Source: a virus
Taxonomy: Duplodnaviria > Heunggongvirae > Uroviricota > Caudoviricetes
IMG/VR virus record: IMGVR_UViG_2636415712_000011
Length of the DNA stretch: 21,899 nt
Reading direction: 5' to 3' (one strand)
In this document: one piece after another, positions 19,517 to 19,826 of the stretch
How positions within the stretch are numbered: position 1 is the first letter of the stretch
Layout: each line of letters begins with the position of its first letter
Program-made: the position numbers and the translations under genes
Notes under the pieces: model-generated
Databases searched by the model: none
What the model was told of the DNA's origin: nothing
What the model saw: only the letters and a program-made list of their open reading frames with translations

Positions 19517-19591
19517 CTGGAGCGGGCAGCGGGAATCGAACCCGCATCATCAGCTTGGAAGGCTGAGGTAATAGCCATTATACGATGCCCG
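19517..19591 (-). tRNA. tRNA-Gly (anticodon UCC)
   Basis: Reverse complement folds as a cloverleaf: 7-bp acceptor stem GCGGGCA/UGCCCGC, T-loop GGTTCGATTCC, anticodon loop CUUCCAA, CCA end. Appears near-identical to host glyT as I recall it. Confidence 0.85.
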
Positions 19592-19595
19592 CATA

Positions 19596-19670
19596 TGGTG
19601 CCGACTACCGGAATCGAACTGGTGACCTACTGATTACAAGTCAGTTGCTCTGCCTGCTGAGCTAAGTCGG
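19596..19670 (-). tRNA. tRNA-Thr (anticodon UGU)
   Basis: Acceptor stem GCCGACU/AGUCGGC, D-stem GCUC/GAGC, anticodon stem ACUGA/UCAGU with loop CUUGUAA, T-loop TTCGATT, CCA end. One A-C mismatch in the T-stem. Confidence 0.8.
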
Positions 19671-19672
19671 CG

Positions 19673-19749
19673 CTGGCCCACCACCGAGGACTCGAACCTC
19701 GGACCGTCAACTTAGAAGGTTGATGCTCTATCCGGATGAGCTAGTGGTG
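19673..19749 (-). tRNA. tRNA-Arg (anticodon UCU)
   Basis: Acceptor stem CCACCAC/GUGGUGG (starts with C1-G72), U8, D-stem GCUC/GAGC, anticodon stem UCAAC/GUUGA with loop CUUCUAA, T-arm CGAGG-TTCGAGT-CCTCG, discriminator G, CCA. Confidence 0.8.
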
Positions 19750-19750
19750 G

Positions 19751-19826
19751 TTGGTGGCCCTTGCTGGACTTGAACCAGCGACCTGGCGATTATGAGTCGC
19801 TCGCTCTCACCACTGAGCTAAAGGGC
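19751..19826 (-). tRNA. tRNA-Ile2 (anticodon CAU, ileX/ileZ-like; formally could be Met)
   Basis: GGCCCTTTAGCTCAGTGGTGAGAGCGAGCGACTCATAATCGCCAGGTCGCTGGTTCAAGTCCAGCAAGGGCCACCA closely resembles E. coli ileX as I recall it; anticodon loop CUCAUAA. Confidence 0.85.

Follow-up and report, generated by a model that had tools for sequence, protein, structure and literature searches.

Transfer RNA (tRNA) genes have been described downstream of the late antiterminator gene Q in the phages SfI, Sf6, ST64T, PS3 and p21, and linked there to the codon argument that we take up below (PMC3636060), and Shiga toxin (Stx) phages carry three tRNAs beside stx2 (PMC7946995; PMC4631060). Under the codon-compensation model (Bailly-Bechet 2007, as given in PMC7946995 and PMC4631060), such tRNAs match codons that the phage uses more than its host does. 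Here, we describe an array of four tRNA genes in the 21,899-nucleotide (nt) Caudoviricetes record IMGVR_UViG_2636415712_000011 of IMG/VR, the whole of which we call the window. We interpret the array, with a probability of roughly 80%, as a lambdoid-phage tRNA cassette placed between Q and the lysis position, which supplements host tRNAs that are scarce for the codon demand of the late genes. It is thus known in kind: post-Q tRNA cassettes and the codon-supply idea have both been published, and the genes themselves are annotated in public Shigella and enteroinvasive Escherichia coli (EIEC) genomes (PGAP, the NCBI annotation pipeline; RefSeq). Our additions are modest, namely a conserved and putatively private promoter, the apparent capture of the Thr and Gly genes from the host, variation of the anticodon on the scaffold of the Stx-phage gene argN, and a one-to-one correspondence between the version with a UCU anticodon and the genomes that carry ipaH.

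ARAGORN calls four tRNA genes and no others in the window, each of them on the minus strand (Table 1). All four score 60.5-71.2 bits with Rfam RF00005, whose gathering threshold is 29 bits, and have E-values of 5e-14 to 4.5e-11, so that these matches are not due to chance; no other RNA family exceeds its Rfam gathering threshold in the window. In the direction of transcription, the order is CAU, Arg(UCU), Thr(UGU) and Gly(UCC), with spacers of 1, 2 and 3 nt (A, GC and TAT) and a CCA end encoded in each gene. An earlier note made from the sequence alone had proposed four genuine cloverleaves, their tight packing and these same anticodons, all of which hold up. It had placed the array correctly but one base off (19517-19826 for 19518-19827) and had left the strand unstated; its description was otherwise right.

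The ileZ-argN-argO cluster of the Stx phages 933W, Sakai and their relatives occupies the same slot, after Q and before the late/lysis (or stx) genes, and has the same TTGCAG-17-TATTAT promoter at an equal distance upstream. Like that cluster's genes, the tRNAs of the window are homologous to ileZ and argN at their first and second positions, and they lie on the same strand as the preceding Q. The first tRNA is 75/76 (99%) identical to ileZ, and the second is built on the same C1-G72 scaffold as argN (63/77, 81.8%). The window differs in that its second tRNA has the anticodon UCU rather than UCG, in that it has copies of thrU and glyT in place of argO, and in that no toxin gene follows. The post-Q location is likewise shared with SfI (Asn-Thr), Sf6, ST64T, PS3 and p21, as is the presence of a tRNA-Thr(UGU), for which the ACA codon-bias argument has already been made in SfI (PMC3636060); however, the window has four tRNAs and no Asn gene, and its likeness to SfI is taken from the description of that phage. 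The same architecture is seen in the Ile2-Lys(UUU)-Thr-Gly arrays of approximately 590 E. coli genomes and of phages such as vB_EcoS-689R5, which share the spacers, the promoter and the Thr and Gly genes with the window and are 94% identical to it over 325 nt. They differ in the second tRNA, which has the anticodon loop CCUUUAA, with C33, and U73, as opposed to CUUCUAA and G73 in the window, and they occur in genomes without ipaH. Apart from general accounts of post-Q and Stx-phage tRNAs, we found in the open-access literature no relevant publication on ileZ, argN and argO, or on ipaH islands or prophages in connection with tRNAs or rare codons, and the part of it that was searched held no expression data for the array.

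The identity of the first tRNA bears on which codon it reads, as a CAU anticodon could also belong to a methionine tRNA. It is 69/76 (90.8%) identical to K-12 ileX as opposed to only 53/78 (67.9%) to the elongator metT. Its acceptor stem, GGCCCUU/AAGGGCC, retains C4-G69 and C5-G68, which are reportedly determinants for TilS, and PGAP labels its homologs tRNA-Ile. The ileX-like body and these labels therefore identify it, on sequence grounds, as an Ile2-type tRNA predicted to read AUA with a presumed lysidine, as the earlier note had supposed.

The second tRNA indeed begins with C1, which pairs with G72 in an acceptor stem of seven Watson-Crick pairs followed by G73. The identity elements recognized by ArgRS are A20, C35, U36 and a purine at position 73. 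This set is present here, with A20 in the D-loop AUCCGGAUA, the anticodon loop CUUCUAA, which is the same as that of argU, and G73. Over its full length, the gene is only 74.7% identical to argU; it belongs to the phage argN lineage, in agreement with the suggestion that it is phage-specific. Across 36 unique variants of the C1 scaffold from IMG/VR, 97% of the stem cells are paired and compensatory changes on both sides occur at five pairs; hence, the scaffold is a maintained tRNA. We observed three anticodons on the C1-G72 argN scaffold, namely UCG in Stx phages, UCU in the window and UUU in approximately 590 E. coli genomes. Copies of it were located in the window and at loci L002 (6095-6171), L007 (2595-2671), L008 (2595-2670) and L069 (3095-3171). 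In the UUU version, C33 replaces the universal U33, and the tRNA-Lys label that we use for it is a candidate label only.

The other two tRNAs have a different origin. The Gly gene matches K-12 glyT at 75/75 positions, just as the earlier note had surmised. The Thr gene, which had been taken to be phage-specific, turns out to be 74/76 identical to host thrU, with both differences being T-to-C changes in the D-loop, and in sister arrays it is an exact copy (76/76). Because the Ile2 and Arg genes resemble ileZ and argN, and the Thr and Gly genes those of the host, the array is a mosaic of two tRNAs of phage lineage and two captured from the host thrU-tyrU-glyT operon. The K-12 operon thrU-tyrU-glyT-thrT-tufB is the source of the latter, but the phage array lacks tyrU, the 116-nt spacer, thrT and tufB, and has a spacer of 3 nt of its own. 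In one IMG/VR contig (L061, 4860-5537), the host spacer AAGATGT comes after the Gly tRNA of the array, and thrT and the beginning of tufB come next, an arrangement that represents either recombination of the phage glyT copy with the chromosomal operon or an assembly chimera.

To set the array against codon demand, we used 40 K-12 genes (15,080 codons) as the host reference. Here, ATA, AGA, ACA and GGA occur at 2.8, 1.1, 5.5 and 6.9 per 1000 codons, each being the least or second-least used codon of its own family, in line with the earlier claim that these A-ending codons are rare in E. coli. Together, they make up 16.2 per 1000 codons in the K-12 genes, as against 38.4 in the late open reading frames (ORFs) of the window (2.4-fold) and 56.6 in ipaH (3.5-fold). 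Wobble rules for modified U34 (mnm5U, cmo5U) make seven codons readable by the array, and all seven (AGG, AGA, ACA, GGG, ATA, ACG and GGA) are among the ten of 61 codons most enriched in the late genes. The second place in that enrichment is taken by CGG, the codon for the UCG version of argN.

For a comparison by tRNA species, we ordered 40 from E. coli by their excess codon demand and applied a rank-sum test. For the late genes, Arg(UCU), Ile2, Gly(UCC) and Thr(UGU) rank 2, 5, 6 and 8 of 40 (P=0.0013), which means that the array matches codons used more by the phage than by its host. The corresponding ranks are 2, 3, 26 and 10 for ipaH (P=0.033) and 1, 2, 13 and 12 for 34 entry-region genes of pCP301, the pINV virulence plasmid (P=0.006). 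AGA (11.5-fold) and ATA (10.6-fold) are the two most enriched codons in the type III secretion system (T3SS) genes of pCP301. The array thus matches the phage late genes best, better than it does ipaH, and its fit to ipaH and pINV comes mostly from Arg and Ile2. The earlier remark that ipaH visibly uses AGA, ATA, ACA and GGA is borne out by their sum; at the level of tRNA species, the codon box of Gly(UCC) shows no enrichment in ipaH.

The earlier note had also placed the array behind a candidate promoter of its own, and a TTGCAG-17-TATTAT site is present there, with its -10 element 9 nt before position +1 of the first tRNA; a promoter scan gives the same site as TTTGCA-18-TATTAT. Both hexamers are invariant in a 4-way alignment of related loci despite diverged flanks. 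We further collected the upstream 70-mers of IMG/VR arrays and clustered them into 21 families that share under 80% ungapped identity. Across these, the information content has sharp peaks at the -35 TTG and in the TATTAT columns, both at a fixed distance from the tRNA +1, while the remaining positions are unconserved. As the hexamers are conserved at a fixed spacing across such diverged upstream families, this footprint supports a private promoter with a predicted start 2-3 nt before the first tRNA. Given the strength of this conservation, synthesis of the tRNAs is probably not limited to induced cells but takes place in lysogens too.

This promoter is preceded by a short hairpin with a U-run that resembles the intrinsic terminator tR' (RNAfold, -8.2 kcal/mol for the segment 19905-19945, to which A-tract/U-tract pairing beyond the 5-bp stem contributes). 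A hairpin with a U-run is found in the equivalent place behind three unrelated Q proteins, namely the PF06323 protein of the window, a DUF1133 protein (L001) and a 126-aa Q (L186). Homology to other prophages begins at this hairpin (at 19940 or 19924), making it the left edge of a mobile module. The 424-bp unit comprising the hairpin, the promoter and the four tRNAs (19940-19517) recurs at 97.6% identity in other prophages with unrelated flanks, and thus appears to behave as such a module. Phages with the same Q carry TTGCAA-17-TATATT between the Q stop and the hairpin, and none is present behind other Q types. We infer that this element and the hairpin are a candidate Q-dependent late promoter pR' followed by tR'. 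The candidate -10 (19997-20002, minus strand) reads TATATC in the window and at loci L010 and L053 as opposed to TATATT in other phages with the same Q, and this T-to-C change may be inactivating in the Shigella copy. Downstream of tRNA-Gly, two further terminator-like hairpins precede the former holin start (RNAfold, -11.2 kcal/mol for 19225-19275 and -15.8 kcal/mol for 18865-18915).

RNase P separation of closely spaced tRNAs, lysidine formation by TilS and wobble by modified U34 are established processes. In the mode of action that we propose, the array would be transcribed as a single precursor from its own sigma-70 promoter, starting 2-3 nt before the first tRNA, and after induction would receive additional transcription by Q-antiterminated read-through from pR'. 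RNase P would then cut each 5' end, 3' exonucleases would trim the 1-3-nt spacers to the encoded CCA, and TilS would convert C34 of the CAU tRNA to lysidine, allowing it to read AUA. In a lysogen, the terminators between the array and the holin position would keep transcripts from the tRNA promoter out of the lysis genes. The resulting supply may incidentally serve other AT-rich acquired genes too, such as ipaH and those of the virulence plasmid.

The codon match, the position and the conservation of the promoter are direct observations on which the phage-cassette reading builds. Several points nevertheless weigh against it. We infer the transcription from the conserved promoter, the lysidine formation and the benefit to translation. 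As duplicates of host genes, the Gly and Thr tRNAs would add gene dosage only, and selection on every member is not strict, given that a 1-nt deletion in the Thr acceptor occurs in one paralogous array (L013/L015). The prophage in the window is defective, making a late-gene benefit moot for this copy, and our K-12 reference is a 40-gene sample and not the whole genome. Finally, the codon adaptation of lambdoid phages with 2-3 tRNA genes has been found to be neither measurably better nor worse than that of phages without them (PMC4631060).

We found a four-tRNA array of the same architecture in 604 of the 5426 complete E. coli genomes, approximately 590 of them with the UUU version, and every locus that we examined lies inside prophage sequence. 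In several lambdoid prophages and phages, behind three Q families, homologous arrays have Q on one side and the holin position on the other. In EIEC CFSAN029787 (L186), the array is part of an apparently complete lambdoid prophage that runs from integrase and early genes through Q, the array, holin, lysozyme, Rz and terminase to the head genes, FI and the tail genes. Just ten of the 5426 genomes have the Arg(UCU) version, at 97.5-99.1% identity, and these are exactly the ten with ipaH (on both chromosome and plasmid; EIEC-type strains). Three copies of the array each are found in S. flexneri SFBU1023, to which the window is 99.4-99.9% identical, and in the 4.44-Mb 'E. coli' ECMA0423. One paralogous array in these two (L013 4173-4246; L015 6256-6329) has the deletion mentioned above, which lies in the 3' acceptor strand of Thr and probably inactivates that tRNA. 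Among IMG/VR arrays with an ileZ-like first tRNA, the commonest are Ile2-Arg(UCG)-Arg(UCU), Ile2-Arg(UCU)-Thr-Gly, Ile2-Arg(UCU) and Ile2-Lys(UUU)-Thr-Gly, the second of these being over-sampled owing to our first search pattern. The confinement of the AGA-reading version to ipaH/pINV lineages, and its presence there in multiple copies, offers a testable link between prophage remnants and the translation of AT-rich virulence genes.

This distribution raises the possibility that the array has become a domesticated host asset, with Shigella and EIEC keeping it, and specifically its Arg(UCU) version, in several decayed prophages to boost the translation of AGA/AUA-rich pINV and ipaH genes, so that its main present role would be bacterial. 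The three copies each in SFBU1023 and ECMA0423, the exclusive occurrence of the Arg(UCU) version in the ipaH genomes, the first and second ranks of Arg(UCU) and Ile2 for the pINV entry-region genes, and the survival of an intact array and promoter in a remnant that has lost its lysis, packaging and head genes are all in keeping with this. However, the co-occurrence may be mere hitch-hiking on an ipaH-carrying prophage family, which is not separable from domestication; one of the copies has a decayed Thr gene; and the ranks of Thr and Gly for pINV are no better than 12 and 13, with Gly falling to 26 for ipaH. We therefore hold such a role to be possible but doubtful. A more specific form of it, in which the argN-scaffold tRNA was re-targeted by anticodon change (UCG/UUU/UCU) and its UCU version, fixed in ipaH prophages and kept in three Shigella copies despite prophage decay, became a domesticated supplier of Arg(AGA) and Ile2 for pINV and IpaH expression, strikes us as rather unlikely. 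At the opposite extreme, the array could be a functionless relic, silent or decaying DNA in a prophage scar. The prophage is heavily degraded, with an insertion sequence (IS) of the IS3 family ahead of Q, ISEc20 where the lysis-to-head genes would be and a split J; the candidate pR' has a T-to-C change at the last position of its -10; and a paralogous array has a damaged Thr. In contrast, the four tRNAs of the window score 60-71 bits with intact stems, its sequence has no signs of decay in the array, the private promoter is unchanged, and the sole differences from sister arrays are natural variants that are also found in the ileZ of Stx phages, all of which makes a relic improbable. This copy is marked by a C48 variant of its Arg tRNA and a D-loop variant of its Ile2.

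Phage tRNAs can also be pictured as anti-defense decoys, replacing host tRNAs that anticodon nucleases or tRNA-targeting toxins cleave during infection. tRNA-Lys is a known target of such nucleases (PrrC, PARIS), and sister arrays bear a UUU anticodon on the same unusual scaffold; moreover, the Arg (74.7%) and Ile2 (90.8%) tRNAs differ substantially from the host genes. Yet the Gly tRNA is that of glyT and the Thr tRNA is two D-loop bases away from thrU, so that both would be cleavable like the host copies, the Arg anticodon loop is the same as that of argU, and the choice of anticodons closely tracks codon demand. We consider a decoy role very improbable and reject it as the main explanation in view of these (near-)identical Gly and Thr genes. 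That the array is an ordinary host tRNA operon, or a tRNA that serves as the integration site of the phage, has next to no likelihood. The same (near-)identity of Gly and Thr to host genes might recommend it, but the real operon, thrU-tyrU-glyT-thrT-tufB, has different spacers, the array lies inside prophages between Q and holin and not at their ends, and it is present in just 604 of 5426 E. coli genomes. Position and distribution thus refute both forms of this idea, the first of which the earlier note had itself named as the finding that would overturn it. The phage cassette for late-gene codon supply remains the reading that we prefer.

Table 1. Features of the window around the tRNA array and at ipaH, with the evidence for each
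Feature	Coordinates	Strand	Evidence or remarks
IS3-family element	21899-20731	minus-strand reading order	upstream of Q
Late antiterminator Q	20004-20801	minus	Pfam PF06323, 1.6e-89, residues 40-256; PHROG 304, 1.7e-105
Candidate pR' (late promoter dependent on Q), overlapping Q at its end	19997-20020	minus	TTGCAA-17-TATATC; read from the sequence
Short hairpin with U-run, tR'-like intrinsic terminator, upstream of the tRNA promoter	19915-19937	minus	terminator scan
Putative sigma-70-type promoter of the array	19837-19865	minus	TTGCAG 19865-19860, 17-nt spacer, TATTAT 19842-19837
tRNA-Ile2 type (anticodon CAU, presumed lysidine-modified, predicted to read AUA), first in array	19752-19827	minus	ARAGORN; Rfam 71.2 bits
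tRNA-Arg(UCU), reads AGA/AGG, argN scaffold with C1-G72	19674-19750	minus	ARAGORN; Rfam 60.5 bits
tRNA-Thr(UGU), near-copy of host thrU, reads ACA (ACG/ACU by wobble)	19596-19671	minus	ARAGORN; Rfam 69.8 bits
tRNA-Gly(UCC), exact copy of host glyT, reads GGA/GGG	19518-19592	minus	ARAGORN; Rfam 64.9 bits
Hairpin with U-run resembling an intrinsic terminator, ~260 nt past tRNA-Gly; the tRNA transcript may end here	19234-19259	minus	terminator scan
Second terminator-like hairpin, 10-bp stem with U-run, just upstream of the former holin start	18868-18904	minus	terminator scan
ISEc20 (IS110 family), not part of the array	17391-18847	plus	Pfam PF01548 and PF02371; 99.3% to the ISEc20 annotated in PPompW
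ipaH (NEL E3 ligase)	849-2600	plus	PF14496, 5.9e-77

The surroundings of the array point to a defective lambdoid prophage, in which the Q-tRNA segment lies between IS elements, the genes from lysis to head are missing and J is split; despite this decay, the promoter and each of the four tRNAs have stayed intact. The listed ORF for Q (265 aa, GTG start) extends into the IS3-family element (20731-20801). As the Pfam match begins only at residue 40, the true start of Q is probably near 20693, which puts the end of the IS only ~35 nt upstream of it. By its location, this element would cut Q off from its usual transcription in the early operon. Between the array and the IS110-family element are approximately 670 nt without a recognizable gene. 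Neither Pfam nor PHROG gives a match for two small minus-strand ORFs in this region (19044-19340 and 19258-19473), and PGAP annotates nothing there in the intact relative L001; hence, we treated them as non-coding. Homology to L001 (19924-18844, 98.9%) ends 7 nt before its holin gene, and ISEc20 therefore occupies the former start of the lysis cassette. Further downstream, in minus-strand order, are lambda-like FI, FII, Z, U, V, G, T, H, M, L, K, I, split J, Lom and tail-fiber genes; the lysis, terminase, portal and head genes have been lost from this prophage. The central tail fiber gene J (5500-8980, minus strand) is split into ORFs at 6242-8980 and 5500-6267, a further sign of a defective prophage.

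The earlier note had described ipaH as adjacent to the array, but it lies approximately 17 kb away in the same prophage remnant, on the opposite strand and convergent with the late operon. A MxiE box, GTATCGTTTTTTTACAT, is present at 637-653 (plus strand), with one mismatch to the consensus, approximately 200 nt upstream of the ipaH start at 849, and predicts that ipaH has its own promoter dependent on T3SS activity. In view of this box, the distance and the convergent orientation, ipaH is not co-transcribed with the array.

In both the window and PPompW phages (L008, 2842-4300), ISEc20 is inserted next to one short flanking sequence, of which 14-18 nt are shared, directly before the start of the holin gene, and the adjacent lysis genes are gone at both sites. 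This suggests a preferred target site of ISEc20 along with IS-associated deletions.

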